64,000 nucleotides of DNA from Bacillota bacterium (GTDB taxonomy: Bacteria; Bacillota; Clostridia; Oscillospirales; Ruminococcaceae). The stretch lies in the NCBI GenBank assembly GCA_023395435.1, contig JAEWZG010000061.1, positions 14,296 to 78,295 on the forward strand, in the 5' to 3' direction. Positions 11,163 to 61,356 of the stretch are shown one piece after another; position 1 is the stretch's first letter; every line of letters begins with the position of its first letter. The position numbers were made by a program, and so were the translations under genes. Under the pieces are notes generated by a model that saw only the letters and a list, made by a program, of their open reading frames with translations, did no database searches and had not been told where the DNA came from.

Positions 11163-11304
11163 ATATTATATTATAGCATAATCGACAGAATTTATCAACA
11201 AATTAATACATATTAATTTTGTTAATATTAGTATACAAAAAATAATGCAAATCATAAAAATATATGCTATAATATAAAATACATAATTTAAAATCGGGGT
11301 TAAT

Positions 11305-12300: not shown

Positions 12301-12311
12301 AGGAGTAATAT

Positions 12312-13298: not shown

Positions 13299-13301
13299 AA
13301 A

Positions 13302-13329
13302 AACAGCACTTCAATTTTGAAGTGCTGTT
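13302..13329. terminator. Bidirectional rho-independent terminator between dnaI and tyrS
   Basis: AACAGCACTTCAA-tt-TTGAAGTGCTGTT, flanked by an A-run and a T-run. Confidence 0.7.
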
Positions 13330-13336
13330 ACTATTT

Positions 13337-14566
13337 TTAAGCAAGAATTATTTTATGAAATACTTTCTTTCCTTTTTTTATAATTATAAAACCTTCGGTA
13401 AAATCTTCTTTTGAAAGATTAAGTGAATTTGCATCTACCTTTTTATCGTTTACTGAAACACCACCCTGTGTTACAAGACGTCTTGCCTCGCCCTTTGAAG
13501 GGCAAAGAGCTGATTTAACGAGAAGATCAATAATAGAAATATTTTCATCAACAAAATCAGCATCAGTAATTTCTGTTGTAGGCATATCATCTGATACACT
13601 CCCTGCACCGAATACAGCTTTCGCAGCATCAAGACATTTTTGTGCCTCATCTTCTGAATGAACCATCTTTGTTACTTCAAAAGCGAGTATTTCTTTTGCT
13701 TTATTGAGTTCACTACCCTGCCACTTTTCCATTTCCTCAATTTCTTCAATAGGCAGGAATGTCAAAAGCTTCAAACAATTGATAACATCATCATCACTGA
13801 CATTTCTCCAGTACTGAAAGAAGTCATAAGGTGTACATTTTTCCGGATCAAGCCACAAAGCACCCTTTTCAGTCTTGCCCATCTTCTTGCCTTCTTTTGT
13901 TGTAAGAAGCGTAAATGTCATACCATAAACTTCTTTTCCTTCCACACGTCTGACAAGGTCAACACCATTAATAATATTTGACCACTGATCATCTCCGCCA
14001 AGCTCCATTTTTACATCAAGTTCTTTGTTAAGATGTAAAAAGTCATAGCTCTGCATTAGCATGTAATTAAATTCAAGGAAGCTTAATCCTTTTTCAAGAC
14101 GTGATTTAAAGCATTCAGCAGTAAGCATTTTATTTACTGAGAAATATCTTCCGATATCTCTGAGGAACTCAATATAATTCATATTCATGAGCCAGTCGCC
14201 GTTCTTGACCATCAACGCTTTATCTTCACCAAATTCAATGAACTTTGACATCTGTCTTTTAAAGCACTCTGCGTTATGGTTAATTTCATCGACAGTAAGC
14301 ATTTTTCTCATATCAGTTTTTCCAGTAGGATCACCAACCATTGTTGTTCCCGTTCCTAAAAGTGCAACAGGAATATGACCAGCCATCTGCAATCTTTTCA
14401 TAACTACAAGCTGCAAGAAATGTCCAACATGAAGGCTATCAGCAGTTGCATCAAATCCAATGTAAAATTTTATACCCTTCTGTGCATCAAGTAGTTCTTT
14501 AATTTTCTCTTCATTAGTAGTCTGTGCAACTAGACCACGTCTTTTTAGTTCTTCAAAAATAGTCAT
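13337..14566 (-). CDS. tyrS: Tyrosyl-tRNA synthetase
   Basis: HVGH (HIGH) and KMGKT (KMSKS) motifs. C-terminal S4 domain. Confidence 0.95.
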
Positions 14567-14595: not shown

Positions 14596-14875
14596 CAAAA
14601 ATCCTCTGTCAAGTAAAAATACTTAACAGAGGACGATTAACATACAAAATGTTACCCCGTGGTACCACCTCAATTTACTGAAATTATATTTCAGCCTCAT
14701 TGACACTATAACGGGCGCAAAACCGTATATTCCTACTTATATGTTCAGAATATAAGCTCCAAGATGTATTCACAAAAATCTAAATACCTTTTTCCAGCGA
14801 CCAAAGGCTCTCTGTAATTATCAATTTAAGCTACTTGCTCTCTTCACAGCTTTTGTATTATGTTATCACAATTGA
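14596..14875 (-). promoter_or_regulatory. T-box riboswitch leader, Tyr specifier
   Basis: On the - strand: AGAGAG bulge and GCUGGAA distal loop. GAA-UAC-A specifier (UAC = 14768-14766). T-box core GGUGGUACCACGG with UGGU bulge (A73 tRNA). Terminator hairpin CCTCTGTTAAG..CTTGACAGAGG plus T-run. Confidence 0.85.
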
Positions 14876-32392: not shown

Positions 32393-32549
32393 AGTCTAAA
32401 TTCCTTTCATTAAATACTCCAAAATTAATTATACTATAATTGTAAAAAATGTCTATATCTTAAATGAAATTTGCTATGATATTTACATATTCTCTTTATT
32501 TTTCTTGACAAATGATAGTAATGGTTATAAACTATAAATAACAAATATA

Positions 32550-32815
32550 AACTGTTGATGCGGAGATAAATAACAAAGTCTGAATTCAGATTATACGGCC
32601 TCACAGAGAGCAAGCATTTGCTGGGAGCTTGCAGGTACGGTGTTTTAAATGGACCGCGGAGGGCATGGTGAAAAATTAATTTGAGTATCCATGACGTATG
32701 GCTGCGTAAAAGTCAGAGAATATATCAGTATTCTTAATGAGGCAGGGTTTCCCTGTAAATCAAGGTGGCACCACGAGAACAACTCGTCCTTGACCGTTGG
32801 TCATGGACTTTTTTT
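32550..32815 (+). promoter_or_regulatory. T-box riboswitch leader, probable Trp specifier, upstream of iorA
   Basis: AGAGAG bulge and GCUGGGA distal loop. AAA-UGG-A (32650-32652) immediately 5' of CCGC, which pairs with GCGG at 32560-32563. T-box core AAUCAAGGUGGCACCACGAG with UGGC bulge (32766-32769). Terminator GTCCTTGAC-cgttg-GTCATGGAC plus T7 (32786-32815). Confidence 0.8.
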
Positions 32816-32844
32816 ATTTATTTATCTTTAGAAGGAGAAATATT

Positions 32845-34623
32845 ATGATTAAGAAGTTACTTATGGGTAATGAAGCAATAGGACTAGGTGCAATTAGAGC
32901 AGGTGTTTCTGTTGTAACAGGTTATCCTGGGACACCATCAACCGAAATTCTTGAAACAATCGCAAAGAACAATGATGGTTCAATTCATGTTGAATGGTCA
33001 ACAAATGAAAAGTCTGCACTTGAGGTTGCTGCTGGTGCATCATATACTGGTGCAAGAGTTATGGTAACTATGAAGCAGGTTGGACTTAATGTTGCTTCTG
33101 ATCCACTGATGAGCCTGAATTATATTGGCGTTAAAGGCGGAATGGTTATCGTTGTTGCTGATGATCCTGGCCCTATATCATCACAGACTGAACAGGATAC
33201 AAGACATTTTGGGAAGTTCGCAAAAATTGCTGTTTTTGATCCATCAAATGCCGAAGAAGCTTATCTCATGATAGGCAAGGCTTTTGAATATTCAGAAAAA
33301 TATCATCGGCCTGTAATTTTTAGACCTACTACACGAGTCTGCCACAGCTGTGCTCCTGTTGAATTACTTGAGAAAATAAATGTTCCAAAACCAGAAGGCT
33401 TTATTAAAGATAGCAAATGGGTTATCTTTCCTCGCCTGACGTACTTGAACCATATTAAGCTTGAAGAAAACTTGAAGCAAATGAGCGTTGATTTCTGTGA
33501 TTACGAAAGAAACTTTAATATTGGTGAAGGTAAAAAAGGTATAGCAAGCGGTGGCGGAAGCTACGCTTATGTCAAAGAAGCTTTAAAAGGCATTGATGAA
33601 TCAGAATACAATCTACTTAAAATATCGACCTACCCTGTTCCTAAAAAGACCTGTGTAGATTTTCTTAATAGTGTTGATGAGGTTCTTGTTGTTGAAGAAC
33701 TTGACCCTGTTATTGAAAAGGAACTTATCTATCTTTGCGGTTTATATAATATAAAGGTTTCTATTAAAGGAAAGCTTACCGGCGATATTCCAAATGCTGG
33801 TGAAAACTCAGTAGATAATATTATCAGTGTCGTTTATAAATACCTTAATAAAAATTTACCTAATAAAGAAGCTTTGAAATTGCCACAATTACCTGTGCGT
33901 CCACCTGTTTTATGCGCTGGATGCCCTCACAGAGCTTCATTCTTTGCTGTTAAAGAAGCTACAAAAGGAATGAAAGCAGTTTACAGCGGTGATATCGGAT
34001 GTTATACATTAGGTAATGCAAAGCCACTAGATATGGTTGATACCTGCCTATGTATGGGTGCTGGTATTACAGTTGCGCAAGGAATACATATTGTTGAGCC
34101 AGACACATTAAACTTTGCCTTTATTGGTGACTCGACATTCTTCCACACTGGCTTACAAGGAATAATCAATGCAGTTTATAATGAGATCGATATAATTGTT
34201 GTTATACTTGATAATTTAACAACTGCAATGACAGGCAGTCAGCCTCACCCTGGTACTGGCAAAACAATGATGAATGGTATATCACAGAAGATAAGCATTG
34301 AAGCAATGGTAAAAGCAATGAATGTTGATAAGGTTGTAAAAGCTAATCCATTTAATGCCGACGAGGCACAGGATGCTGTCAAGAGTGTTCTTAATGAAAA
34401 AGGTGTAAGGGTAATTATTTTTCAGGCTCCTTGTATCGTAGTTCATAAAGGTAAGGATAAATGCACAATTTCTACCGACAAGTGTACTGGCTGCAAAATA
34501 TGCATAAATAAACTTGGTTGCCCTGCAATTTCTTTTAATAATAAAAAAGCTCAGATTAATCCAACCCTATGTACAGGCTGCGGAATATGCAAGAGTGTCT
34601 GCAAGTTCGGCGCTATTCAATGA
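32845..34623 (+). CDS. iorA: Indolepyruvate:ferredoxin oxidoreductase alpha subunit
   Basis: 592 aa from ATG 32845 (RBS GAAGGAG). TPP-binding GDIGCYT...GDSTFFHTG. C-terminal 2x[4Fe-4S] CTGCKIC..CP / CTGCGICKSVC. Confidence 0.88.
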   Translation: MIKKLLMGNEAIGLGAIRAGVSVVTGYPGTPSTEILETIAKNNDGSIHVEWSTNEKSALEVAAGASYTGARVMVTMKQVGLNVASDPLMSLNYIGVKGGMVIVVADDPGPISSQTEQDTRHFGKFAKIAVFDPSNAEEAYLMIGKAFEYSEKYHRPVIFRPTTRVCHSCAPVELLEKINVPKPEGFIKDSKWVIFPRLTYLNHIKLEENLKQMSVDFCDYERNFNIGEGKKGIASGGGSYAYVKEALKGIDESEYNLLKISTYPVPKKTCVDFLNSVDEVLVVEELDPVIEKELIYLCGLYNIKVSIKGKLTGDIPNAGENSVDNIISVVYKYLNKNLPNKEALKLPQLPVRPPVLCAGCPHRASFFAVKEATKGMKAVYSGDIGCYTLGNAKPLDMVDTCLCMGAGITVAQGIHIVEPDTLNFAFIGDSTFFHTGLQGIINAVYNEIDIIVVILDNLTTAMTGSQPHPGTGKTMMNGISQKISIEAMVKAMNVDKVVKANPFNADEAQDAVKSVLNEKGVRVIIFQAPCIVVHKGKDKCTISTDKCTGCKICINKLGCPAISFNNKKAQINPTLCTGCGICKSVCKFGAIQ

Positions 34624-34653
34624 TTGAATATAAATTATTCTTTGGAGGTAAAA

Positions 34654-35256
34654 ATGATTAGTTTTATATTATCTGGCGTCGGTGGTCAGGGTACTGTTCT
34701 TGCATCGAAGCTTCTTGCAAAATCTGCTATGGAATCAGGACTTGAAGTCAGAACGACAGAAACAATAGGTATGGCACAGCGTGGTGGCTCTGTTGTTAGC
34801 CATATAAGAATGGGAGAAACAGTGGATTCCCCAATTGTGCCAGAAAAAAGTGCTGATGTTATTATTGCTTTTGAACCTTCTGAGGCTGTAAGAGTCCTTC
34901 CTTATTTAAAAGAAAACGGCAGTATGCTCGTATGTGATTCTCCTATAATGCCTGTTACAAGTTCACTAGGTGGCGGTTATGATATTGATGAAATAATTAA
35001 CTTCTTGAAAGTTAACGTTAAAAATCTCACTATTTTCAATGGTGATAAATTTATGGAATGTTGTGGAAATGAAAAAGCATTGAATGTTGCCTTGCTCGGT
35101 ACAACTGCAAACACAGGAGCATTACCTTTCAATACAGAAATATTAGAAAATACTATTAAAAAAAGTATTCCTGAAAAGTTCTTAGATATGAATATGAAAG
35201 CTTACGATTTTGGAAAGAGGTGCGCAAATGACAACAGAAGTATTGAACAGAATTAA
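34654..35256 (+). CDS. iorB: Indolepyruvate:ferredoxin oxidoreductase beta subunit
   Basis: GVGGQGTVLASK, ETIGMAQRGGSV. ATG 34654 after GGAGG. Confidence 0.85.
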   Translation: MISFILSGVGGQGTVLASKLLAKSAMESGLEVRTTETIGMAQRGGSVVSHIRMGETVDSPIVPEKSADVIIAFEPSEAVRVLPYLKENGSMLVCDSPIMPVTSSLGGGYDIDEIINFLKVNVKNLTIFNGDKFMECCGNEKALNVALLGTTANTGALPFNTEILENTIKKSIPEKFLDMNMKAYDFGKRCANDNRSIEQN

Positions 35257-36457
35257 AAAATCAATAAGTCATGCTATGAACAGTGAATTTTACAAAGAGC
35301 ATTTTAAAGGAATTGATACTTCAAGCATTAATTCACAAGAAGATTTTGAAAAACTTCCTTTCTCCGATAAAGGTGATTTAAGAAATGCTTATCCTCTCGG
35401 TCTTCAGGCAGTACCTGACGAAAAAATCGTTCGTATTCACTCTTCATCAGGAACAACAGGAACACCTGTTATTATTCCTTATACACAAAAAGACGTTGAT
35501 GATTGGGCAACTATGTTCAAGAGATGTTACGAAACTGCTGGTATTACTAATACTGACAGAATACATATTACTCCTGGTTATGGTTTGTGGACTGCGGGTA
35601 TTGGTTTTCAGTTAGGTGCTGAAAAGCTTGGTGCTATGACTATTCCAATGGGTCCAGGTAATACAGACAAACAGTTAAAAATGATGGAAGACTTAAAATC
35701 ATCAGTTATATGTGCAACATCTTCATATGCACTTTTGCTTGCAGAAGAAATTGAAAAGCGTGGAATTAAAGATAAAATTGTATTAAAAAAAGCAGTTATC
35801 GGTTCAGAACGCTGGGGCGAGAAAATGAGAAAGCGTATTGCAAATGAGCTTGGCGTTCAGTTATTTGATATTTATGGACTTACAGAAATATATGGTCCTG
35901 GTATAGGTATGAGCTGTCCTTTTGAGCACGGTATGCATATGTGGACTGATTATTTATATTATGAAATAATTGATCCAAAGACAGGTAAGCATGTTAAAAA
36001 AGGCGAAGTCGGTGAGCTTGTTATCACAACTCTCGAAAAAGAAGGTGCACCACTAATACGTTATAGAACGCACGACCTTACAAAAGAAATTGAGGGCGAA
36101 TGTGAATGTGGCTTAAAATTCCCACGAATTGATACAATTATCGGGCGTTCAGATGATATGGTCAAAGTCAAAGGAGCTATTGTGTTCCCCGCCCGTGTTG
36201 AAGAAGTTCTTTCAAAAATTGAAGGTGTCAGCAGTGAATATCAGATTATCATTGATCATCTTAATGGAAAAGACATTCTGTCACTATTCTTTGAAACACC
36301 TATTAATGATGAAAAAGAACGTAAGGAACTGGCTAAACGCGTAGAAAAGGTATTTAAAGAACAGATTAATATTATTCCTGTAACAAAGCCAGTTTCTATC
36401 GGTGAATTGCCACGAAGCGAAAAGAAATCAACAAGAATTTTTGATAACAGATATTAA
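35228..36457 (+). CDS. paaK: Phenylacetate-CoA ligase family (aryl-acetate adenylating enzyme)
   Basis: SSGTTGTP AMP-binding motif, YGLTE, and a PaaK-type short C-domain. Confidence 0.85.
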   Translation: MTTEVLNRIKKSISHAMNSEFYKEHFKGIDTSSINSQEDFEKLPFSDKGDLRNAYPLGLQAVPDEKIVRIHSSSGTTGTPVIIPYTQKDVDDWATMFKRCYETAGITNTDRIHITPGYGLWTAGIGFQLGAEKLGAMTIPMGPGNTDKQLKMMEDLKSSVICATSSYALLLAEEIEKRGIKDKIVLKKAVIGSERWGEKMRKRIANELGVQLFDIYGLTEIYGPGIGMSCPFEHGMHMWTDYLYYEIIDPKTGKHVKKGEVGELVITTLEKEGAPLIRYRTHDLTKEIEGECECGLKFPRIDTIIGRSDDMVKVKGAIVFPARVEEVLSKIEGVSSEYQIIIDHLNGKDILSLFFETPINDEKERKELAKRVEKVFKEQINIIPVTKPVSIGELPRSEKKSTRIFDNRY

Positions 36458-36558
36458 TTTAGCAAAACATCCTCTATTACAGAGGATGTTTTAATTATAT
36501 GTTGTATATATAAAGGCATAATGATATAATATGATTATATATAAATTTATGAGGTATA

Positions 36559-38472: not shown

Positions 38473-38559
38473 GCCGCTGTGGTGGAATAGGCAGACACAA
38501 GGGACTTAAAATCCCTCGGTAGTAATATCGTACCGGTTCAAGTCCGGTCAGCGGCACCA
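38473..38559 (+). tRNA. tRNA-Leu (anticodon UAA), class II with long variable arm, CCA encoded
   Basis: Acceptor GCCGCTG/CAGCGGC. Anticodon arm AGGGA-CTTAAAA-TCCCT. Variable arm CGGTA-GTAA-TATCG. T-arm ACCGG-TTCAAGT-CCGGT. Terminator at 38577-38605. Confidence 0.92.
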
Positions 38560-38979: not shown

Positions 38980-40377
38980 TTATGACTTTGGCAATGTTAC
39001 CATAAATACACTTCCCTCATTTAAAACGCTCTGAACATCAACAGTACCGCCATGAGCTGATATAATTGATTTTACAATAACCAGTCCTATTCCTGTCCCG
39101 CCAGACTTACGATTACGTGATTTATCTGCTCTGTAAAAGCGTTCAAAAATAAACGGTAAATCTTCTGATGAAATACCAATTCCGTTATCTTGAATGCTAA
39201 GCATTATAGACTTATCCGTCTCTGAAAGATTAATATTGATGTTTCCGCCCTGACTTGTGTATTTTATTGCATTGGATAACAAGTTTATCACTACTTGACT
39301 AATTCTGTCTTTATCAGCAAAAATATCTGCGCAAAAGCCATTAACTGAAACAGACATAGCTTTATTTTTAAGTTCAACTTCAAAATTAAATAGCACCTTT
39401 TTTACTACTTCTATAATATTAACTTGCGTTTTTTCAAGTTTTAAGTTGTTGCTGTCAACCCTTGCAAGGCTTTCCAAATCCTTCACAAGTTTTTCAAGAC
39501 GAACGGCTTCATCATAGCAGCTTTGAAGGCGCTGCGTCGTCGGTTGCCACACACCTTCAACCATAGCTTCAATATGTGTCTGTAAAGTGGTAAGTGGGGT
39601 TCTTAACTCATGGGCAACGTCAGCAGTAAGCTGTTTTCTCAAATTTTCCTGCTTGCCTAATGAATCAGCCAAATGGTTAATAGACCCAGTAAGTTCGTTT
39701 ACCTCTTTTGTGTTTGTAGTTTCTTCAATTCTAACATTGTATTCTCCATCTGAGATTTGTTTTGCTACTCCAGCAGTTATAAGTATTGGGTGACTTATCC
39801 GTTTTGCCATAAAGAATCCAACAAAGACAGAAAAGACAAGTGAAATAACACTTACTAAAATTAGAATTCTATTAAGCGAATTTAAAAATTCAAAATCATC
39901 TTTACTTAGGAAATAAGGACCAAAAAAACTAATATTAGCTTTTCCAATTTCTTTATTTACTAAATAAATTGGAAACTCTTTTGAAGTGAATTCCCCATTG
40001 ATTTGTGGATATTTAGTCATCATTCTATGTGAAATATCATCCATTATCCGTGTACAGCTATTCATGTCACAAACTTCAGCATCCCATATATTATTACTGT
40101 TCACATCATAAACTTTAACAATAAACCCATCATAAAGAGCATTCATACCTATGGTGTGTACAAAATTCATATCCCATTTACCTGTTGCATCGTCATATTG
40201 TTGGCTGATCGATGTTACAATTTCCTTTACTGATGCTTGCTGTTGTCTAGTTATGTATCCTTTAAACTGGTCTTGAATTAAAAAATTAGAGAATAGGCTG
40301 ATTATTGCAATTGATAGCAATGTTACGAATGCAATAGTAAGTGATAGTTTTGTTTTTAAAGTATGTTTCATCCGCAC
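38980..40377 (-). CDS. Sensor histidine kinase (two TM helices, HAMP, HisKA, HATPase)
   Basis: H-box ADVAHELRTPLT, N-box NLLSNAIKYT, G-boxes DNGIGI and GGTGIGL. Confidence 0.88.
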   Translation of the reverse strand: MRMKHTLKTKLSLTIAFVTLLSIAIISLFSNFLIQDQFKGYITRQQQASVKEIVTSISQQYDDATGKWDMNFVHTIGMNALYDGFIVKVYDVNSNNIWDAEVCDMNSCTRIMDDISHRMMTKYPQINGEFTSKEFPIYLVNKEIGKANISFFGPYFLSKDDFEFLNSLNRILILVSVISLVFSVFVGFFMAKRISHPILITAGVAKQISDGEYNVRIEETTNTKEVNELTGSINHLADSLGKQENLRKQLTADVAHELRTPLTTLQTHIEAMVEGVWQPTTQRLQSCYDEAVRLEKLVKDLESLARVDSNNLKLEKTQVNIIEVVKKVLFNFEVELKNKAMSVSVNGFCADIFADKDRISQVVINLLSNAIKYTSQGGNININLSETDKSIMLSIQDNGIGISSEDLPFIFERFYRADKSRNRKSGGTGIGLVIVKSIISAHGGTVDVQSVLNEGSVFMVTLPKS

Positions 40378-40490
40378 ACCTTCCTTTCTCTCAAATTACT
40401 TTAAGGTGACACTGCAAAACCTTTAAGCACAAATTTTCTAAAATATGAGCTATAAGATTATGCCGTGCTACCTTAAGTTTATTTATTAAT

Positions 40491-41189
40491 CTACTCCCCA
40501 CCAAATTTATAACCTGTACCATGGATTGTAAGAATATATGTTGGGTTTTTGGGGTCACTCTCAATTTTTTGCCGAAGATTCTTTATATGGCTATCGATTG
40601 CCCTATCATACCCATTAAACTCATCTCCAAAAGCTATTTGTATTAATTCTTCTCGAGTGAAAACTTTATTTGGATATTTTATCAAGGTTGAAAATATCTT
40701 AAATTCATTTGGTGTAAGATTTAATTCGCATTGATTCTTTTTAATTATGTGGCTTTCAAAATCAACGATTAAATCGTCATTCCCAAAAGTGCTTTTGTTA
40801 TATAGAGGCTGTAAATCGCTTTGTGACCTGCGCAGTACTGCATCAATCCTTGCATAGAGTTCTTTTAGACTGAACGGCTTTGTTATATAATCATCTGCAC
40901 CAATCTCTAAGCCTTTTAGCATATCAGATTCCTCTGCCTTGGCTGTAAGCATAATAATTGGTACACGGGACTTTTTACGAATTGTCATACAAATATCTTC
41001 ACCAGTCATATCTGGTAGCATGAGGTCTAATAATATTAGTGAGATATTTTTTCTTTCAAAAATACCAAGAGCATCATTCCCACTTTCAGCAGAAAACACA
41101 TTAAAATTTTTGCTTTCAAGAAATGACTTGACAACCTCTATTATTTTTTCTTCATCATCGACAATCAATATTGATTTTGCATTATCCAT
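40491..41189 (-). CDS. OmpR/PhoB-family response regulator
   Basis: Receiver domain (ILIVDDEE, DLMLPDMTG, LTAK) and winged helix (LTPNEFKIF..., GTGYKF). ATG 41189 after GAGAGGA. Confidence 0.9.
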   Translation of the reverse strand: MDNAKSILIVDDEEKIIEVVKSFLESKNFNVFSAESGNDALGIFERKNISLILLDLMLPDMTGEDICMTIRKKSRVPIIMLTAKAEESDMLKGLEIGADDYITKPFSLKELYARIDAVLRRSQSDLQPLYNKSTFGNDDLIVDFESHIIKKNQCELNLTPNEFKIFSTLIKYPNKVFTREELIQIAFGDEFNGYDRAIDSHIKNLRQKIESDPKNPTYILTIHGTGYKFGGE

Positions 41190-41250
41190 ATAATATCCTC
41201 TCAAAAACCATTCTCAAAGTCCCTTTAACAAAGGACTTTGAGAAATGCTA

Positions 41251-41457
41251 TTATACTATATCATAACCTTGATCTTCAATTGCAATCTTAATATCATCAA
41301 TTGATACTTTATCTGATTGGTACTCTATTGTAACAGTTTTTTGAGATAAATCAACTTCCACTGTTGCTACGCCATCAAGTGCACCAACAGATTTTTTTAT
41401 TACATTTTCGCAATGGGAACAGGACATCCCATCAACTATTAATATAATTTTTCCCAT
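41251..41457 (-). CDS. copZ: Copper chaperone CopZ (single HMA domain)
   Basis: 68 aa with GMSCSHC motif. ATG 41457 after GGAGGA. Confidence 0.85.
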   Translation of the reverse strand: MGKIILIVDGMSCSHCENVIKKSVGALDGVATVEVDLSQKTVTIEYQSDKVSIDDIKIAIEDQGYDIV

Positions 41458-41508
41458 TATAAGTTCCTCCAACAATATATTTTATTAATACTACTTTACG
41501 ACTTTTAT

Positions 41509-42954
41509 TTATTGTCCGCAACAGCCACCCATTGTTTGTACTGTTTTTGAACTTTCATCTTTTATTTTAACCACATCAGCTTTGCTTAAATAATCCACAA
41601 CAGTAATTTTGCTTCTTATCATTCCCATCCAACAGCTATATGGAATAGTTCCAGTCTTAGAAGGTGTGAACTCTATTACATTATCTCCTTCTTCAAGGTC
41701 TTTTGTAATATTATACTCAGGAATAATAATTGAATTGTTACAGCCATTGATTGTCCCATCTTCCGCTTTTATTGTCCATTTTACTGGTATCCCTGATTGA
41801 ACAGTAATTGGCTCATATTCTCCGCTTTTAAGTGTTGTGGTAACTGTCTGAACACCATCAGCTCCAATAGAAGCTGTATTATTACTGCTTGATTTATTAA
41901 AATCACCAATCATTGATGGAAATGAAAGTCCTGAAACACTAATACCATTTTGGAACATGAATATACCAAGTATGATTACTAATACAGAACTCACCTGCAT
42001 CATTTTGCTTGTAAACTTTTTACTTAAAAATGAGCTCAGAGTGCCAATTCCAAACATTAGTGGTACAGTCCCTAAGCTAAACAATAACATAGATAGTGCA
42101 CCTTTTAGCGGACTTCCAGAAGAAAGTGCATATAACTGCATGGCTTGCAACGGACCACATGGCATAAGTCCATTTAAAAGTCCGACATAAAGAGGGCTTT
42201 TGCTATTTTTGCTTTTTTCTTCATTAATTTTTTTATATAATATCTTTGGCATTCTTATATTAAACTTTCGGAGCCAAGGAAAGAAATTTAGCATATTAAG
42301 TCCCATTATAACCATAAATATACCAGCAATTATTGCTACAATGCCTCTTGCAGTACCTGAAAAGCTAACCACTGAACCAATACCACCAACGATACCACCG
42401 ACGACCGTATAAGAAATAACCCTTCCTAAGTTATATAGGATACTTGGTCTTAAATTTGCTAGCTTACTCTTACTTTGAATACACTGCTTTGAGACACATT
42501 GAGATAAATTGATTCCCCCGCACATTGCAACACAATGTATTGAAGTGAGCAGTCCAATTAAAAATAGCATGCTATATCCTACACCTTGTTTCGCCTTTGG
42601 AAAGTTGTTGAAAATATTGAAGACACCAAAGAGTTTGCCTATCATAAATACAGCAAGAACAATAACTCCAATTCCTAATATCTGTTTTATGTCAGTTTTT
42701 TTACCGATAACTGGATTTTTTGCGTTTGAAACAGTTTTTTTGATTTTATAATCTAAGTCTACAATGATTTTTTCTATTGTTTCCAAATGAATTATATCTG
42801 CATCAAAAGTAACTTTGGCTACTGAGCTTGAGTAGCTTACCTTAGCACTAACAATTCCTGATGTTTTTTTAAGTATATTTTCTATTCTGTTTTCACAGTT
42901 TGTACAGGTCATTCCGTCAATAAAGATTGTTTTTGTAATAATATTTTGTGACAT
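41509..42954 (-). CDS. Fusion: HMA domain, TauE/SafE-like polytopic membrane domain, C-terminal cupredoxin-like domain
   Basis: N-terminal GMTCTNC. About 8 TM helices with paired Cys (HCVAMCGG, LMPCGPLQ). C-terminal beta domain (IPVKWTI..INGCNN..IPYSCWMGM). Ends GGCCGQ. Confidence 0.65.
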   Translation of the reverse strand: MSQNIITKTIFIDGMTCTNCENRIENILKKTSGIVSAKVSYSSSVAKVTFDADIIHLETIEKIIVDLDYKIKKTVSNAKNPVIGKKTDIKQILGIGVIVLAVFMIGKLFGVFNIFNNFPKAKQGVGYSMLFLIGLLTSIHCVAMCGGINLSQCVSKQCIQSKSKLANLRPSILYNLGRVISYTVVGGIVGGIGSVVSFSGTARGIVAIIAGIFMVIMGLNMLNFFPWLRKFNIRMPKILYKKINEEKSKNSKSPLYVGLLNGLMPCGPLQAMQLYALSSGSPLKGALSMLLFSLGTVPLMFGIGTLSSFLSKKFTSKMMQVSSVLVIILGIFMFQNGISVSGLSFPSMIGDFNKSSSNNTASIGADGVQTVTTTLKSGEYEPITVQSGIPVKWTIKAEDGTINGCNNSIIIPEYNITKDLEEGDNVIEFTPSKTGTIPYSCWMGMIRSKITVVDYLSKADVVKIKDESSKTVQTMGGCCGQ

Positions 42955-42995
42955 GAAATCCCTCCTCAATAAATGCTACAATTAACAGAGTTATA

Positions 42996-43529
42996 TTAAC
43001 TCTTCCAATTCTCGAAAACAAACCTTGCCTCTGTTAGATAATCTTTAGATATAGTTATATTTGTTGTATCCACGGTTTTTACATCATCAGTGATTGGAAC
43101 TGGATTACAACCTCCCTTAGTAACCTGAACATCACTCATACCAAACTGGTTACCACAGTTTTGGCAGACAAGAACATCGCGCTTCTGCACATAGTAGCCT
43201 TTACCAGAAGCATAACATACCTGACAGGTATTAAATGCTGTTCGGATGCTGCCGTCCGGTGCCTTAACAGCCATAACCTCCATGTTCGTACCATCAATAG
43301 CTATTGGATAAAATGTAGCCTTATCAGATACTTCACTAATTGGTATTAGAAAATCTCCATTTTCGGACAGTGTAACATTTATCTTTTGGTCAATTTTTTT
43401 GTCTGACGGCTGTTTTGTAAGTAATAAAGCTGTGATGATTATTGCAATAAATGCTGGTATAATAATCATCAGAATTTTTAGCTTATTGGATTTCTGTTTC
43501 ACATTTTTTAAATTTTTAGTATTACTCAT
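42996..43529 (-). CDS. DUF2318-like membrane-anchored Cys4 metal-binding protein
   Basis: N-terminal TM helix. CQVC..GKGYY...LVCQNCGNQF...GGCNPVP. Confidence 0.6.
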   Translation of the reverse strand: MSNTKNLKNVKQKSNKLKILMIIIPAFIAIIITALLLTKQPSDKKIDQKINVTLSENGDFLIPISEVSDKATFYPIAIDGTNMEVMAVKAPDGSIRTAFNTCQVCYASGKGYYVQKRDVLVCQNCGNQFGMSDVQVTKGGCNPVPITDDVKTVDTTNITISKDYLTEARFVFENWKS

Positions 43530-43601
43530 TATAAATTCTTCCTCTCAAATCAAGTTAATGTAAGGTTTGTTACTTACTAATATGAGTATAAAGAAAGATT
43601 T

Positions 43602-43618
43602 TGTAGAAATTATGTAGA
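43602..43618 (-). promoter_or_regulatory. Candidate response-regulator box: direct repeat TGTAGA-N5-TGTAGA over the -35 region
   Basis: Repeats have 11-bp periodicity and lie 11 nt upstream of a TATACT -10 (43590-43585, - strand), ahead of the 42996-43529 operon. Confidence 0.45.
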
Positions 43619-43788
43619 TAAGAATTTTTTATGATTAAAAACAACGAATGCCATGTATTTACATTCAGGAATGAACACATGGCATTTCATTAATATTTAA
43701 GCCTTCCTTTTGCACGATTGGTATTGAGATCATTGCATTTAACGAGTTCAAAGCATATTATTCTTTTTACTAATTGATATTACATTAC

Positions 43789-44457
43789 TTATTTTAAATC
43801 GAAAGGCTTTAGTAATTTATCAAGTTGTACAGTTTTACCTGCATCATTTTTCATTTCCACCTTGGCAAAAACCCAACCTTTGACTTTTGCAGGGTCTACA
43901 CCAGCATCAATGAACATTTGTGGGTTAAGAACAAACACTATGTCCTTATCATTTTTGCTCATATCCTTTGCCCATTCAAATTTATTGCCATCCCCTAAAT
44001 CCACACCATAGTGATCAAGCTTTTCATGATAGCCAATTATATCACGTTTTTGTTTTACAATTTCCTCATATGATGCGATAGCTGTCTTTTTAGCATTATC
44101 TGAAAAAACTTTGTCGCCTAAATCTTGTCCTACCATGATCTTATCATCAACCATAATACCAGCAGGCAGCTTAGAAGCATCTAGTCCTGCATCAAGAAAG
44201 GGTTTCGCATCAGTTTCAATCATAACGTCGTGTGGCGACGATGTTTTAAAATTATTACTCCATATAAATCTTGCAGAGCCGTCTGGTGCATTCAGCGACC
44301 AGCCACCATACATTTCGTCTGATTCAATGTCACTTGCTTTTATAACAGCATCAAATGATGTTATTGAAACTTTGCCAACTACATCAGTGCAGGTACAAGC
44401 CGTAAAAGTAATAATTGCCGCGATAGGCACAATAATTGACATAATTTTCTTATTCAT
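43789..44457 (-). CDS. Lipoprotein of unknown function, co-transcribed with copA
   Basis: Signal peptide plus lipobox ITFTAC. Internal duplication of the F(L/I)DAG(L/V)D motif. ATG 44457 after GGAGGA. Confidence 0.6.
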   Translation of the reverse strand: MNKKIMSIIVPIAAIITFTACTCTDVVGKVSITSFDAVIKASDIESDEMYGGWSLNAPDGSARFIWSNNFKTSSPHDVMIETDAKPFLDAGLDASKLPAGIMVDDKIMVGQDLGDKVFSDNAKKTAIASYEEIVKQKRDIIGYHEKLDHYGVDLGDGNKFEWAKDMSKNDKDIVFVLNPQMFIDAGVDPAKVKGWVFAKVEMKNDAGKTVQLDKLLKPFDLK

Positions 44458-44479
44458 TTTATTTTCCTCCACTTAATAA

Positions 44480-46945
44480 CTAACGATATGGCTTAAAGGC
44501 TTTTAGCCTCAAAGCATTTGCCAGCACGGATACAGATGATAATGACATAGCCGCTGCAGCAAAAATAGGATTTAATATTGGACCACCAAATACAAATAAT
44601 ATGCCTGCTGCAATTGGAATACCCAATACATTATATCCAAATGCCCAAAATAAGTTTTCCTTAATATTGCTAATAGTACTTTTACTTAATTGAATAGCAG
44701 TTGGGACGTCTATTAAATCACTGCGAATTAAAACAATATCGGCCGATTCCATTGCAATATCCGTACCAGAACCAATTGCTATTCCGACATCTGATTGCGC
44801 AAGAGCTGGTGCATCATTAATTCCATCACCAACCATTGATACTATCCTTCCCATCTCCTGAAGCTTTTTGACTTCATTTGCCTTATCGTTAGGAAGTACT
44901 TCTGCCAAAACTCTGTCAATCCCAACTTGTTTTGCAATAGCTTCAGCTGTTTTTTTATTATCACCAGTAATCATTGCAACCTCAATGCCCATTTCATGGA
45001 GCTTTTTAATTGCTTTTGCACTACTATCTTTTACTACATCGGCTACAGCAATAATTCCTGCGAATTTTTCATTTATAGCGACATACATAGGCGTTTTGCC
45101 CTCATTTGCTAGTTTATCTGAAATAGCTTGAAAATCACCAATAAAAATCCCTTGCTCTATCATTAGCTTTTGGTTACCTAACAATACATTTTCATTGTTA
45201 ATCTGCACCTTGATACCATATCCAGGGATTGCATTGAATGCTTGAGCTGAAAGTATTTCAAGCTGTTCTTTTTCTGCACCTCTTACAATAGCTTCACCCA
45301 ATGGGTGTTCAGAACCTTTTTCTGCACTCGCGGCAATTTGCAGGAGTTTATCACGCGTTATTTCAGAAGCAGTAATAATATCCGTAACCTCTGGTTTTCC
45401 CTCTGTAATTGTTCCGGTTTTATCAAAAACAATAGTATTAATTTTATGAGCAGTTTCCAGTGACTCCCCGCCCTTTATTAATACACCATTTTCCGCACCT
45501 TTTCCTGTGCCCACCATTATAGCAGTCGGTGTTGCTAGTCCCAATGCACATGGACAAGCAATTACAAGCACTGCTATAAAAATGGAAATTGAAAATGCCA
45601 AGCTTTGTCCGCTGATTAACCAAGCAGCTGCTGCTAAAACTGCAATACCAAACACAATCGGTACGAAATATCCTGACACAATATCAGCCATTTGTGCAAT
45701 AGGTGCTTTAGAGCCCTGAGCATCTTCAACAAGCTTGATAATTTGTGCTAAAGCTGTATCCGAACCAACTTTAGTGGCACGAAAATTAATAGAACCATTG
45801 CCATTTATACTTGCTGCGTATATATGATCTCCAGATTTTTTTTCTATAGGCATGCTCTCGCCTGTCAACATTGATTCATCTATCGAAGTATATCCCTCAA
45901 CGACTTCACCATCTACGGGTATTTTTTCACCCGGTTTTACTATTATAATATCACCAACTTCTACTTCATCCACTGGAACAACAGTTTCTTTTCCGTCTTG
46001 AATTACAAGCGCGGTCTTTGGAGCAAGTCCCATTAGCTTTTTTATTGCTTCTGAAGTTTTACCTTTTGATACAGCTTCTAAAGATTTGCCCAATAGTATT
46101 AGCGTGATAATTACGCCAGCAGTCTCAAAATACAAATGATCTACAGCTTTAAAATTTCCTAAATAAATTTGAACAGTTGAGATTACACTATATATTACAG
46201 CAGCTGTTGTACCCATTGCTATAAGTGAATCCATGTTTGGTGACCTTTGCCAGATTGCCTTAAAGCCTACCCTATAGAACCTGTTTCCTGCAATTAGTAT
46301 TGGAATTACCAACGCAATTTGAACCAACGCATATGTTAATGGATACTGCATAGGTTTTAAAAACGCCGGGATTGGAAAATGTAACCACCAAATCATTGAA
46401 CCCATTGCAAGATATAATAGAGGGATTCCAAAGATAGCAGATACAGCAAGCTTTCTCCAAAGGGTACGAATTTCCTTTTCTTTTCTTAGTTTATCCTGAT
46501 CAATTGAATTGGCGCTTGAACTTTCTAAAGGATTATAACCAGCATTTTTAATGACTGCTTTTATTTGTGAAATACGCACAACTGATGGGTCATATTTGAT
46601 TGTTGCCTTTTCAGTTGCAAAATTAACGGAACTTGAAAGCACACCGTTCAATTTACCCGTGACTTTTTCAATTCTTTGTGAGCAAGCCGCACAGGTCATC
46701 CCGCTGATTGGAATTGTTACTTCTTTTTCAACTGTTTCTGATATTGAATGATAGCCTGCTTTTTCAATTGCTTCCTGAATTTGTTCTTTCGATACCGTAT
46801 TATCATCAAATGTAATAGTCAATTTTTCTGTAGCAAAATTCACATTTGATTGTATCACACCTGTGAGCTTTGCTGTAACTTTTTCTATTCTTGCGGCACA
46901 GGCAGAACAAGTCATGCCAATGATTTTCATACTAAGTTGTTGCAT
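44480..46945 (-). CDS. copA: Copper-translocating P1B-type ATPase
   Basis: 821 aa. Two HMA domains (GMTCSACA, GMTCAACS), CPC in TM6, DKTGT, GDGINDAP. Confidence 0.95.
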   Translation of the reverse strand: MQQLSMKIIGMTCSACAARIEKVTAKLTGVIQSNVNFATEKLTITFDDNTVSKEQIQEAIEKAGYHSISETVEKEVTIPISGMTCAACSQRIEKVTGKLNGVLSSSVNFATEKATIKYDPSVVRISQIKAVIKNAGYNPLESSSANSIDQDKLRKEKEIRTLWRKLAVSAIFGIPLLYLAMGSMIWWLHFPIPAFLKPMQYPLTYALVQIALVIPILIAGNRFYRVGFKAIWQRSPNMDSLIAMGTTAAVIYSVISTVQIYLGNFKAVDHLYFETAGVIITLILLGKSLEAVSKGKTSEAIKKLMGLAPKTALVIQDGKETVVPVDEVEVGDIIIVKPGEKIPVDGEVVEGYTSIDESMLTGESMPIEKKSGDHIYAASINGNGSINFRATKVGSDTALAQIIKLVEDAQGSKAPIAQMADIVSGYFVPIVFGIAVLAAAAWLISGQSLAFSISIFIAVLVIACPCALGLATPTAIMVGTGKGAENGVLIKGGESLETAHKINTIVFDKTGTITEGKPEVTDIITASEITRDKLLQIAASAEKGSEHPLGEAIVRGAEKEQLEILSAQAFNAIPGYGIKVQINNENVLLGNQKLMIEQGIFIGDFQAISDKLANEGKTPMYVAINEKFAGIIAVADVVKDSSAKAIKKLHEMGIEVAMITGDNKKTAEAIAKQVGIDRVLAEVLPNDKANEVKKLQEMGRIVSMVGDGINDAPALAQSDVGIAIGSGTDIAMESADIVLIRSDLIDVPTAIQLSKSTISNIKENLFWAFGYNVLGIPIAAGILFVFGGPILNPIFAAAAMSLSSVSVLANALRLKAFKPYR

Positions 46946-47050
46946 TTAATTCCTCCTATATAACAAACTTGTAAATTTATATATACCTTTGTACGGTATG
47001 CAAATAATTTCATGAGTTGAATTATTTGCTGTTATATTATCATTATGATA

Positions 47051-47693: not shown

Positions 47694-48224
47694 CTATTTT
47701 TTCTCACTTGTTACTTGACTTGAATCAGTAAAAGAACTATCACCAATTATATCTGTAAGTGGTTCATAATAAAATATTTCATAATTTAATTCTTCTGAGC
47801 AGGCATTAACTATCTCTAGTGATTTTTTAGGATTTTTATAAACCCATTGAGCAGTTAATGGGTTATCACTGTCAATTCCATACTTTTTCTTAAAAATAGG
47901 TTGTAGCTTTTGTATTTCTTCTTTATAGGTATTATATTTATCGTTACTTTCATCAAAAAATATGCTATTGAATCTATTGACTACAGATTCTGTTTTATCA
48001 GTAACAACAATACCCCTTTTTTCTATTTCGTCTAACTCATCATACCCATACTCATTATGTGAAATAAATCCGTATCTCAGCAGATAAACCTTATAGGAAA
48101 AAGAACTAATCCCATCTTTATATATATCAGGCTTTTTAATATTTTTACTTCTTATATATAAAACACCAACAATAATAATAACAATTGCTAAAATTATTAT
48201 TATGTATTTGACTATTTTTCGCAT
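47694..48224 (-). CDS. Membrane-anchored candidate immunity protein
   Basis: 176 aa. MRK plus one TM helix then a soluble domain. Starts 5 nt after the toxin stop, with RBS AAGGGGA. Confidence 0.5.
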   Translation of the reverse strand: MRKIVKYIIIILAIVIIIVGVLYIRSKNIKKPDIYKDGISSFSYKVYLLRYGFISHNEYGYDELDEIEKRGIVVTDKTESVVNRFNSIFFDESNDKYNTYKEEIQKLQPIFKKKYGIDSDNPLTAQWVYKNPKKSLEIVNACSEELNYEIFYYEPLTDIIGDSSFTDSSQVTSEKK

Positions 48225-48228
48225 TAGA

Positions 48229-49824
48229 TCAATCCCCTTCTACTAATATTCCATCCGGATTATCAGCTTGAATCTTATGAAGAATATTATATATTTTAAT
48301 ATCTCCTTTAAAAACGTCTTCCAACAAAATTTTGTTATATTTCTCACCATACTTAATATTTATTTTATCAATACGTTTTTCGGTATCTAATCCAGGTTGA
48401 ACAGATAAAAAGGGCTTAAATCCTTCTGAATATTCTGCCCTAATGCCATACATTTCAAGCTCTTCATATACAGTTGACCATTTACCCAAATCAATAATTG
48501 TTTTTGCATTTTTTATGTCTTCTCTATATTTTTTTTTAGATTGATGTATATCTCCAATAGCAACAATTACATCCCCTACAAATGGTACTGCTCCAGCTAT
48601 ACTTTTTGCGCCAGCTTTTGAAGTGTGTATTGATAATTGTTTTTCAATTTTTTTCTGAACTTGTTTTTCAATTGCTTCTCTTAATTTATCATATCCTTCA
48701 GTTGCCAGAAATCCCTCTGCTGTTTGCTTAGGAGAAAGTGAAAAAGAATCACCATAATATAAAGCAAATTCTTTTTCCGTCTGATCATTGCGATCATAAT
48801 CAAACCCTTTATTTTCAACTTGAAGAACTTTAGAAATTACTATTTGCTCATTATCAAAATAATATTCTCTTGTTATATCAGAGTACCCCATATTTTCAAG
48901 GCATTTATAATCACCATATTGTAAAATTACGTCACCATTTTGTTGAGTCCCAGAAAAAAAACCAATTTGGTCTTTAAAGGGTGATTTCACTTCAGTAATT
49001 TTACTTAATGCTTTTGTTAAGCTATTTCTTTGCATTGCTAATTTATAAGAATTTAAAGATTCATTATTATCATCGTCTATTCCATGTATTTTAAAAGCTA
49101 AAGCTTCACAGTATTTTTGATACTGGAGAATACTTAACATATCAGAAAAATTACTGAGCTTTCCAGTATCCAATTTCCAAATAGAATGTGCTGGCTTAAT
49201 TTCACGAACTCTAACTGGGGATACGCCCTTTCCCGCTTCAGTTATTATACCGAACTTATTATCTTCATAGCTTTTCTTATCATAAAATTCAGATAAAAAT
49301 TCCGAAACATCACCATCTTCTAATGAAAGAAATATCATTGCCAATATCATATTATCTTCATCTGTTATTTCTTCAGCATTTCTATTTAAAATTACCTTCC
49401 ATTTTTCGTCTGTGCTATAAAACTCTAATATAGTTAGAAACTCCTCAGCAGATGGTTTAATAAAGTTTTGAAAACTATTCTTTTCAAATGTACAACGTAG
49501 ATCGCAAACTCCATTTAGCACCTTTGTTTCCATATTTAAAATTTCAAGTTTTAATTTTAATTCTGATAACCTTCGACTTGTTGTTCTTTCTGCTTCTTCA
49601 CAATCTGCAAAAACTTTGTTTATACATTTCTTTGACATTTCCAATGATTCATTAAATTTGTTATAAAACTTATTAATATAACAGTAAAAATCAACGTCAC
49701 TGTATGATGAGTTCAACTGATTTAGTTTTTCTTTCAGTATATACATTTCTTCAAGACTTAAATCAATATTTTTAAGTAAGGATAGCTTTTTTACGAAGTC
49801 ATAATTACGGATAGTTGTTCCCAT
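48229..49824 (-). CDS. Candidate polymorphic toxin (helical N-region, PT-TG-like motif, unique 105-aa C-terminal domain)
   Basis: 531 aa from ATG 49824 (RBS GAGGAAG). IAGAVPFVGDVIVAIGDI at 48547-48603 resembles the pre-toxin motif in the Rhs orphan at 57661-57795. Confidence 0.5.
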   Translation of the reverse strand: MGTTIRNYDFVKKLSLLKNIDLSLEEMYILKEKLNQLNSSYSDVDFYCYINKFYNKFNESLEMSKKCINKVFADCEEAERTTSRRLSELKLKLEILNMETKVLNGVCDLRCTFEKNSFQNFIKPSAEEFLTILEFYSTDEKWKVILNRNAEEITDEDNMILAMIFLSLEDGDVSEFLSEFYDKKSYEDNKFGIITEAGKGVSPVRVREIKPAHSIWKLDTGKLSNFSDMLSILQYQKYCEALAFKIHGIDDDNNESLNSYKLAMQRNSLTKALSKITEVKSPFKDQIGFFSGTQQNGDVILQYGDYKCLENMGYSDITREYYFDNEQIVISKVLQVENKGFDYDRNDQTEKEFALYYGDSFSLSPKQTAEGFLATEGYDKLREAIEKQVQKKIEKQLSIHTSKAGAKSIAGAVPFVGDVIVAIGDIHQSKKKYREDIKNAKTIIDLGKWSTVYEELEMYGIRAEYSEGFKPFLSVQPGLDTEKRIDKINIKYGEKYNKILLEDVFKGDIKIYNILHKIQADNPDGILVEGD

Positions 49825-49841
49825 ATTATTCTTCCTCTTCT

Positions 49842-58305: not shown

Positions 58306-58367
58306 TACGTCGCCTTGAACAGTATCCTATAATCTGAATTGTTTTACCATAATTATACTACATCACT

Positions 58368-58413
58368 TTTTAGATGTAAAGATAAAGGCCACATCAGATA
58401 AAACTGTGTGACC
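58368..58413 (-). repeat. 46-nt cassette-end element E2
   Basis: Copy of E1/E3, directly downstream of the 67-aa ORF. Confidence 0.8.
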
Positions 58414-58425
58414 TTACTTAATGCA

Positions 58426-58629: not shown

Positions 58630-58706
58630 TCACTAGCACCTCACTTCCATCCATAATTTTTACTTAGTCTGTCTAATAAGCATTTCCAACATTATAATAT
58701 ATAGCT

Positions 58707-58752
58707 TTTGAGATGTAAAGAAAAAGGCCACATCAGATAAAACTGTGTGACC
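58707..58752 (-). repeat. 46-nt cassette-end element E3
   Basis: Copy of E1/E2, directly downstream of the 125-aa immunity candidate. Confidence 0.8.
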
Positions 58753-58765
58753 TAGTTTTATTAAT

Positions 58766-61354: not shown

Positions 61355-61356
61355 CT

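Follow-up and report, generated by a model that had tools for sequence, protein, structure and literature searches.

A tryptophan-type T-box leader ahead of an indolepyruvate:ferredoxin oxidoreductase and aryl-acetate-CoA ligase operon in a Ruminococcaceae bacterium suggests an anabolic role for the operon

A stretch of 64,000 nucleotides (nt) from a Bacillota bacterium of the Ruminococcaceae (assembly GCA_023395435.1, contig JAEWZG010000061.1, positions 14,296 to 78,295 of the forward strand; the whole stretch is called the window, and all coordinates are counted from its first letter) carries a three-gene operon, iorA-iorB-ligase, directly behind a T-box leader. The operon encodes the two subunits of an indolepyruvate:ferredoxin oxidoreductase (IOR) and an AMP-forming ligase that joins aryl-acetates to coenzyme A (CoA). 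The leader is quite probably a working class I T-box for tRNA-Trp, and iorAB-ligase an aryl-acetate assimilation route induced by shortage of tryptophan (Trp). Within the reach of sequence analysis, the T-box and its Trp specificity are established. The anabolic reading of the operon is supported by context and is not proven; we infer that the leader binds the tRNA, that Trp limitation induces the operon, what its substrate is, that the reaction runs reductively and that the organism is a Trp auxotroph.

T-boxes switch genes on when the cognate tRNA is uncharged. In the proposed mechanism, Stem I of the leader would present the codon UGG to the CCA anticodon of tRNA-Trp. When this tRNA is uncharged, its 3' GCCA would pair with the UGGC bulge of the antiterminator, which would thereby be stabilised and permit read-through into iorA-iorB-ligase; when it is charged, the terminator at 32786-32815 would form instead. 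The AMP-forming ligase, of the PaaK family, would activate imported indole-3-acetate (possibly other aryl-acetates as well) to the CoA thioester. IorAB, running in reverse, would use reduced ferredoxin and CO2 to carboxylate indoleacetyl-CoA to indolepyruvate, and a housekeeping aminotransferase encoded elsewhere would convert indolepyruvate to Trp. The elements of the leader, and the second T-box of the window, which served for comparison, are the following.

32546..32815, plus strand: complete transcriptional T-box leader (Stem I, II, IIA/B, III, antiterminator, terminator), RF00230
32552..32662, plus strand: Stem I, from the model alignment, with C32552 and U32553 paired with G32661 and G32662
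32578..32591, plus strand: extra hairpin in Stem I, GUCUG-AAUU-CAGAU, an insertion in the model alignment and a gap block in the leader alignment
32605..32632, plus strand: AG bulge AGAGA (32605-32609) and distal stem-loop GCAAGC / 11-nt loop / GCUUGC, from the leader alignment
32650..32653, plus strand: specifier UGG (Trp, 32650-32652) and conserved 3' purine A32653, in the model register
32664..32706, plus strand: Stem II with its GAA...AGUA S-turn (32664-32693) and Stem IIA (32695-32706), from the model alignment
32717..32734, plus strand: second extra hairpin, AGAAUA-UAUCAG-UAUUCU, between Stem IIA/B and Stem III, a model insertion that forms in the minimum-free-energy fold
32743..32755, plus strand: Stem III, CAGGG-UUU-CCCUG, from the model alignment, which forms in the centroid fold
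32761..32792, plus strand: antiterminator, with A1 CAAGG/CCUUG, bulge UGGCACC (32766-32772) and A2 ACGAG/CUCGU
32786..32815, plus strand: intrinsic terminator, GUCCUUGACC-GUU-GGUCAUGGAC (32786-32808) followed by U7 (32809-32815), about -13 kcal/mol, its inner part found in the terminator scan
14626-14856, minus strand: tyrosine (Tyr) T-box leader, RF00230 148.7 bits, specifier UAC, bulge UGGU

A preliminary description of the window, made from the letters alone, had claimed that the leader has the hallmarks of a T-box and had proposed a covariance-model scan as a check. Such a scan of positions 32400-32900, run permissively with RF00230, gave a full-length match at 32546-32794 (+; model positions 1-219 of 219, 90.9 bits, E 1.3e-20) in which all stems are aligned and UGG stands in the specifier loop, so that this claim was borne out. 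The base of Stem I holds a kink-turn (GA) motif UGA...GGA and a helix formed by GCGG (32560-32563) and CCGC (32654-32657); this pairing, and the conserved A32653 that precedes CCGC, had been read from the letters and were found again in the model alignment. The AG bulge and the distal loop are predicted to form the platform on which the tRNA elbow docks. Leader structure was judged from the model alignment and from covariation and not from the minimum-free-energy fold of the whole leader, which mixes terminator-state and long-range pairs (z -1.8); a two-state RNA is expected to fold in this way, and the unremarkable fold was therefore given no weight.

For comparison, ior loci were gathered by exact-protein look-ups of close IorA homologs and supplemented by further loci from species-representative genomes (80) and metagenomes (80). 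They are designated by L numbers, and since they are not a random sample, locus frequencies are indicative at most. Leaders in these loci were found with Rfam scans and with a profile built from the first leaders. Seventeen T-box leaders adjoin ior clusters, in 13 clusters below 85% leader identity: the leader of the window and those of L091, L084, L085, L088, L092, L093, L122, L123, L129, L132 and L137, together with L007 (Parasporobacterium paucivorans DSM 15970, leader at 5706-5954), L016, L017, L046 and L136. Their identity to the leader of the window is as low as 41%, and the IorA proteins encoded beside them share 56-100% identity with that of the window. Orthologous leaders such as those of L084 (97.5 bits) and L007 (111.8 bits) score above the gathering threshold of RF00230. 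The extra hairpin of Stem I (32578-32591) is lineage-specific, being present in L084 and absent from L085 and L088, and an insertion comparable to the second one (32717-32734) is found in all three.

All 17 leaders carry UGG in the specifier register, and none carries UUC or UAC. In the model alignment the Trp leader reads AAA-UGG-A-CCGC-GGA-GG at the same positions at which the Tyr leader, used as an internal register control, reads GAA-UAC-A-UCUU-GGA-GC; the latter stands upstream of tyrS (13337-14566, -). The choice of UGG at 32650-32652 as specifier, and the reading of UAC and UGGU in the leader of tyrS, thus proved right. The preliminary description had also named UAC at 32636-32638 as a codon that structure modelling might place in the specifier loop in place of UGG; this UAC is out of register, in an upper internal loop of Stem I, and was ruled out. 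Readings of AUG or GGA were rejected as well: in leaders whose GAA is canonical, UGG comes right after it, just as UAC comes after GAA in the tyrS leader. The specifiers of the remaining four T-boxes of the loci are UAC (tyrS of the window, L068), UUC (L047) and GCC (L055).

Covariation was counted over eight aligned leaders and in Stem I, because MAFFT misregistered the 3' arms of the antiterminators of distant leaders. In the Stem I helices around the codon, 95.8% of cells are paired and 11 of the 15 pairs are changed on both sides. The corresponding covariation score is 0.86, against at most 0.17 when the partners are slid by 1-3 columns, and none of 500 shuffles reaches it. The 4-bp helix beneath the codon occurs as GCGG/CCGC, GUGG/CCAC, UGAG/CUCA, CAAG/CUUG and UAAG/CUUA, with compensatory changes at three of its four pairs, and AAUGG is invariant in the eight leaders while its flanks vary. 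AGAGA of the AG bulge is invariant too, and each of the six pairs of the distal helix is altered on both sides across leaders. Antiterminators and terminators were analysed sequence by sequence (the simple search misplaced the partner strands of L007 and the terminators of L122 and L136); all eight aligned leaders, and most of those found later, have an antiterminator with its bulge and, competing with it, a terminator and U-run.

In the window, the antiterminator forms 10 of its 10 pairs (-7.8 kcal/mol), and since the 5' arm of the terminator reuses the 3' arm of the antiterminator, the two structures are mutually exclusive. The intrinsic terminator that had been noticed directly ahead of iorA was located at 32786-32815, after which come the ribosome-binding site (32833-32837) and the ATG (32845). 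Bacterial tRNA-Trp has G73, which is recognised by TrpRS residues strictly conserved across bacteria (PMC12135181), so that UGGC makes a Watson-Crick pair and UGGU a wobble with this tRNA. The bulge UGGCACC (32766-32772) hence fits the G73 of bacterial tRNA-Trp, as had been claimed. UGGC was found in 13 of the 17 Trp leaders; the four non-Trp leaders all have UGGU, and in this dataset UGGC is confined to leaders with a UGG specifier.

The genes under the leader, and the signals around them, are given below.

32505..32533, plus strand: predicted sigma-70-like promoter, -35 TTGACA (32505-32510), 17-nt spacer, -10 TAAACT (32528-32533)
32833-32837, plus strand: ribosome-binding site AGGAG, followed by the iorA ATG at 32845
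32845..34623, plus strand: iorA, indolepyruvate:ferredoxin oxidoreductase alpha subunit, 592 amino acids (aa), from the TIGR03336 equivalog and the gene call
34654..35256, plus strand: iorB, IOR beta subunit, 200 aa, from IOR-beta models, Pfam POR and the gene call
35228..36457, plus strand: PaaK-family AMP-forming aryl-acetate-CoA ligase, 409 aa, from TIGR02155, AMP-binding and AMP-binding_C_2
36464..36492, plus strand: terminator-like hairpin closing the operon, 12-pair stem, from the terminator scan

The gene set iorA-iorB-ligase, as first read from the open reading frames, was confirmed. IorA passes the equivalog test of TIGR03336 (724 bits, cutoff 650.9) and contains the domains POR_N, TPP_enzyme_C and Fer4; IorB and the ligase were assigned by their best models and domains. 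The top matches of IorB are all IOR-beta models (E 1e-55), each under its equivalog cutoff (188.7 vs 238 bits). The ligase scores 378 bits against the PaaK equivalog TIGR02155, whose cutoff is 646, and was therefore assigned at family level, as a PaaK-family AMP-forming aryl-acid ligase; its closest solved structure, 4R1L, is deposited as a phenylacetate-CoA ligase (E 1e-104), in agreement with the family assignment. 4R1L is taken to be a Bacteroides protein. The promoter matches the consensus at 10 of 12 positions in a consensus scan (a match to consensus alone), and the transcription start that it implies would lie a few bases 5' of the T-box. Gene calls on the parent contig placed unrelated genes on both sides of the operon (a CPBP protease and the spoIIIA operon at its 5' side; ThiF/TcdA, BaxI and tRNA-Leu at its 3' side), no transporter gene within it, and no trp genes in the window. 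This parent contig is metagenomic and 206 kb long (ENA ERZ27269283, k141_78416), and the window covers its positions 29607-93606. The closest named relatives of the TyrRS are 76-80% identical and come from metagenome-assembled genomes of Oscillospiraceae or Clostridiales, from which the host is taken to be an uncultured, spore-forming member of the Clostridia.

The association of these genes extends far beyond the window. Of 88 sequences that matched IorA (the loci fetched at that stage plus the window), 57 have a PaaK-like ligase on the same strand within 1.5 kb downstream, among them nearly all sequences whose IorA is at least 45% identical. The module occurs in Bacillota, Coriobacteriia, Treponema, Bacteroidota, Synergistota and Methanosarcinales; it is widespread, and by this comparison of loci the T-box is a lineage-specific addition.

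Several Trp T-box operons also include transporter genes. In L084 (IorA 91% identical), L093 and L122, the Trp T-box is followed by a major facilitator superfamily (MFS) gene and then by iorA-iorB-ligase; the MFS proteins (L084 2558-3736, for example) are members of the monocarboxylate/oxalate-formate family, with 258 bits against the SfMCT model (under the cutoff of 320), and the copies share 58% identity. The Trp T-box of L129 and L132 precedes an energy-coupling factor (ECF) S-component (345-923 in L129), two EcfA ATPases and EcfT, and then iorA-iorB-ligase. This S-component is 43% identical to that of L046, which matches Pfam TrpP. L046 (Ruminococcaceae UMGS577, 8512-13332) has its Trp T-box after iorAB, where it drives trpP-ecfA-ecfA'-ecfT and the ligase, an arrangement that splits the module into two transcription units. 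A four-gene unit of an MFS transporter of the monocarboxylate transporter/oxalate-formate antiporter (MCT/OFA) type and iorA-iorB-ligase was also observed, with no T-box, in about 30 metagenome loci (L094-L146, e.g. L097 2315-7166); many of these samples, to judge by their codes, are presumably from termite gut. In L088, the locus of a 72% relative, a thiamine pyrophosphate (TPP) riboswitch (12422-12531, -, 66.6 bits, above the gathering score) lies near the ior operon and upstream of an NMT1/ABC transporter cluster.

Two loci connect the module to Trp by other means. In L136 (5979-7844), a T-box with UGG and UGGC comes directly after ligase-iorA-iorB and ahead of trpE (Chorismate_bind and Anth_synt_I_N), and L135 has the same arrangement of T-box and trpE. 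Their T-box was considered as a second case of the arrangement of L046 and rejected as such, since it controls trpE and not ior or ligase genes; that of L136 was accordingly not counted as an ior-controlling leader. In L140 (Ga0134100_1000855), an operon of a TrpP-like S-component, ECF genes and iorA-iorB-ligase has no T-box. In its leader (236-335), nine GAG/UAG triplets with spacers of 2, 2, 2, 2, 1, 2, 2 and 2 nt stand at 236-277 and are followed by a hairpin and U-run; when the leader is folded, the repeats at the 3' end of the array pair with the region of the terminator. A regular-expression search for at least seven (G/U)AG repeats, run over both strands of 1.70 Mb, matched at this site of L140 and nowhere else, and shuffled sequences gave no match. 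In its repeats and fold, the leader of L140 resembles a TRAP (mtrB) attenuator, a Trp-sensing mechanism unrelated to the T-box.

These comparisons bear on the direction in which the pathway runs. The preliminary description had taken the Trp T-box to suggest that the operon is anabolic; this is supported by the AMP-forming ligase, the co-transcribed importers, the TRAP-like site of L140 and the trpE neighbour of L136. The ligase consumes ATP and is AMP-forming, so that synthesis of the thioester is favoured. AMP-forming ligases are described as favouring CoA-ester synthesis, the catabolic IOR-type layouts using Pta/Ack or ADP-forming ligases (PMC13285125). For Bacteroides, arylacetate-CoA ligase activity was assayed with the neighbouring enzyme, and the authors propose that the IOR there may be biosynthetic, "similar to methanogenic archaea" (PMC13285125). 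Indoleacetate production was rare among 206 gut isolates (PMC13290082), which fits the view that many ior genes do not serve to make indoleacetate.

IorAB might nevertheless work oxidatively, from arylpyruvate to aryl-acetyl-CoA, as in peptide fermenters, the T-box then for example redirecting catabolism of phenylalanine (Phe) or Tyr when Trp is short, or having been taken over from a gene next to it. The first descriptions of IOR were of a catabolic enzyme, 2-oxoacid:ferredoxin oxidoreductases are reversible, and oxidative use is documented in Clostridioides difficile and gut acetogens and reportedly in Bacteroides thetaiotaomicron (PMC7438776, PMC13290082, PMC13285125). We hold this to be very improbable. 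To induce the catabolism of an amino acid family by lack of Trp would make no regulatory sense, and indeed be perverse during Trp starvation; the partner enzyme is an AMP-forming ligase, whereas catabolic layouts have an acyl kinase or an ADP-forming ligase with an aminotransferase; and the transporters that are co-transcribed are importers, not exporters. Nor is the link between T-box and ior a one-off relic, since it is kept across IorA identities of 56-100% and in several operon architectures.

Importers have been recruited repeatedly to the same iorAB-ligase module, and so has a second kind of Trp-sensing leader. On a wider view, which we consider slightly better than an even bet, IorAB and the PaaK-like ligase, with or without an importer of the MCT or TrpP type, would constitute a dedicated bacterial pathway for Trp salvage from environmental indole-3-acetate, which several Clostridia lineages would have put into their Trp regulon by means of a tRNA-Trp T-box or a TRAP-type attenuator.

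A number of observations weigh against a Trp-sensing leader that serves Trp supply, some of them concerning the leader and others the pathway. As to the leader, its score is 2.1 bits short of the gathering score of RF00230 (93 bits), and for this reason the default Rfam scan of the whole window, made at gathering threshold, missed it and returned one T-box (14626-14856, -) and two tRNAs; the shortfall is put down to the two inserted hairpins (32578-32591 and 32717-32734). The S-turn of the specifier loop is degenerate, with AGAUAA (5') and AAA (3') against AGUA and GAA; the canonical GAA is present in the distant orthologous leaders L007, L016, L046 and L136. Four distant Trp leaders (L007, L016, L017 and L046) have UGGU, and thus a G-U wobble against G73. 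In the window C32769 would pair with G73, a base that this organism is expected to share with other bacteria; no tRNA-Trp gene was found in the window or in the roughly 107 fetched loci. Combined with moderate posterior probabilities at the specifier and a whole-leader fold that is not exceptional, the low score, the degenerate S-turn and the two insertions could point to a T-box that is decayed or non-functional, or that presents a codon other than UGG, the Trp reading being then an artefact of alignment. To this we give hardly any credence: the match is full-length (E 1.3e-20), orthologous leaders (L084, L007) pass the threshold, AAUGG is invariant, the helix under the codon and the distal helix show compensatory changes at 3/4 and 6/6 pairs, UGG follows the canonical GAA as UAC does in tyrS, and antiterminator and terminator are intact.

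As to the pathway, gene calls on the parent contig showed no aminotransferase gene in the operon or elsewhere in the window. A T-box is absent from some 90% of the ior loci that were sampled. IOR enzymes act on phenyl-, hydroxyphenyl- and indolepyruvate (PMC13285125), and since they accept all three, control by Trp only is not explained by enzyme specificity. The annotation of TrpP-family S-components is Trp import, and Trp, not indoleacetate, may thus be the cargo of the co-transcribed transporters. In L136 the module coexists with de novo Trp synthesis, and it is therefore not confined to auxotrophs.

Such points would suit a T-box that is Trp-specific, placed over a module of general aryl-acid assimilation (phenylacetate, 4-hydroxyphenylacetate and indoleacetate as inputs for Phe, Tyr and Trp), with Trp, the scarcest and costliest of the three, acting as sentinel; alternatively, Trp import would be the main benefit in the relatives and iorAB-ligase accessory. 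The substrate range of the IORs, a ligase nearest to enzymes deposited as phenylacetate-CoA ligases, the wide occurrence of the module free of Trp-specific control and the match of the ECF S-component to the TrpP tryptophan transporter family all speak for it. We think it unlikely, because the specifier is UGG in 17 of 17 leaders and UUC or UAC in none, the second regulator (the TRAP-like site of L140) is likewise Trp-specific, and trp is the sole adjacent biosynthetic operon found. Import cannot be the function of the operon of the window, which has no transporter. Assimilation of aryl-acetates, indole-3-acetate in particular, in response to Trp shortage is thus retained as the preferred reading.

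IOR genes are common in anaerobes and are usually read as catabolic producers of phenylacetate and indoleacetate, which are host-active metabolites. A switch that is on only with uncharged tRNA-Trp points to Trp supply and not to Trp destruction, and regulatory evidence across lineages and two types of sensor suggests that the bacterial iorAB-ligase module serves this supply. If this is true, many "iorAB" genes of the gut, the rumen and the termite gut have been annotated with the wrong physiological direction; their carriers would be sinks and not sources of indoleacetate, and pools of this compound would have unrecognised consumers. The finding from the 1960s of Trp formation from indoleacetate in rumen bacteria would gain a genetic basis, and the Clostridia of gut and rumen would have to be given an additional source of Trp in metabolic models and in predictions of auxotrophy. 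Parasporobacterium paucivorans DSM 15970, a cultured carrier of the T-box-ior operon, provides an experimental handle.

Elsewhere in the window, a tRNA-Leu (38473-38559) is followed downstream by a copper or heavy-metal cluster at about 38980-47000 (a two-component system, HMA chaperones, a DsbD_TM/cupredoxin protein, an FtrD-like protein and a P-type ATPase). Gene calls on the collinear contig L090 delimit two runs of short minus-strand open reading frames that have no Pfam matches, at about 47700-52200 and 56200-62100. Between them lie an AraC regulator and an ABC-2 exporter, a tRNA-Thr (61414-61489) lies inside the second run, and the two runs may be a mobile or phage-derived island.

Among known systems, the leader is closest to the class I T-boxes of RF00230, whose archetype is Bacillus subtilis tyrS. 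It has their Stem I kink-turn, specifier loop, AG bulge and distal loop, their Stem II S-turn, Stem IIA/B and Stem III, and their 7-nt UGGNACC bulge with competing antiterminator and terminator (anatomy in PMC7583486). It differs from the archetype, and from the tyrS leader of the window, by its UGG and UGGC, its two extra hairpins, its degenerate specifier-loop S-turn, a score just under the gathering threshold and its control of genes other than those of a synthetase. Known targets of Trp T-boxes are trpS, the trp operon and rtpA/anti-TRAP. The leader of the window has the UGG specifier of these systems, would respond like them to uncharged tRNA-Trp and would likewise raise Trp supply, and the same type of leader stands on trpE in L136 and on the trpP-type ECF genes in L046; it differs in that the target here is a ferredoxin oxidoreductase with a CoA ligase.

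The route itself has precedents, and Allison reportedly observed formation of Trp from indoleacetate in rumen bacteria in the 1960s. Synthesis of Phe from phenylacetate in rumen bacteria is mentioned, as cited work, in PMC7356843, and the feeding of aryl acids into aromatic amino acid synthesis through IOR in Methanococcus maripaludis in PMC4162585 (Porat 2004, as cited there). The likeness lies in the sequence of steps, from aryl-acetate to aryl-acetyl-CoA, by reductive carboxylation with IOR to arylpyruvate and by transamination to the amino acid, and in the same IOR family. The present case differs by its host among the Clostridia and by an RNA switch specific for one amino acid as regulatory link. 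In Bacteroides, IOR with an adjacent AMP-forming ligase (PMC13285125) shows the same pairing of iorAB with a PaaK-like enzyme; unlike the operon of the window, the one Bacteroidota locus sampled (L048) had no T-box. The IOR of B. thetaiotaomicron has also been linked to phenylacetate production, and its direction there is debated (PMC13285125).

Within the Clostridia, CD2382-iorAB-butK of C. difficile contains the same IorAB family (PMC7438776), but combines it with an aromatic aminotransferase and an ATP-yielding acyl kinase under a SigL (sigma-54) promoter with its activator, whereas the operon of the window has an AMP-forming ligase and a starvation-sensing T-box; trpP is listed among the T-box-associated genes of C. 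difficile in the same paper (PMC7438776). Control of a conversion or salvage pathway by a T-box has a parallel in the cysteine (Cys) T-box on ubiG-mccBA of Clostridium acetobutylicum, which governs conversion of methionine to Cys and differs by its amino acid, its chemistry and the additional S-box and antisense RNA (PMC2566862). Open full-text papers contained none that combine "T-box" with "indolepyruvate", and co-mentions of "T-box" and "iorA" were unrelated (the classic surveys, RegPrecise and TBDB may differ). The T-box is an ordinary member of RF00230, and the idea of the pathway is already published (for methanogens, for the rumen and in a 2026 proposal for Bacteroides); we classify iorAB-ligase as a new regulon target for a known kind of T-box.

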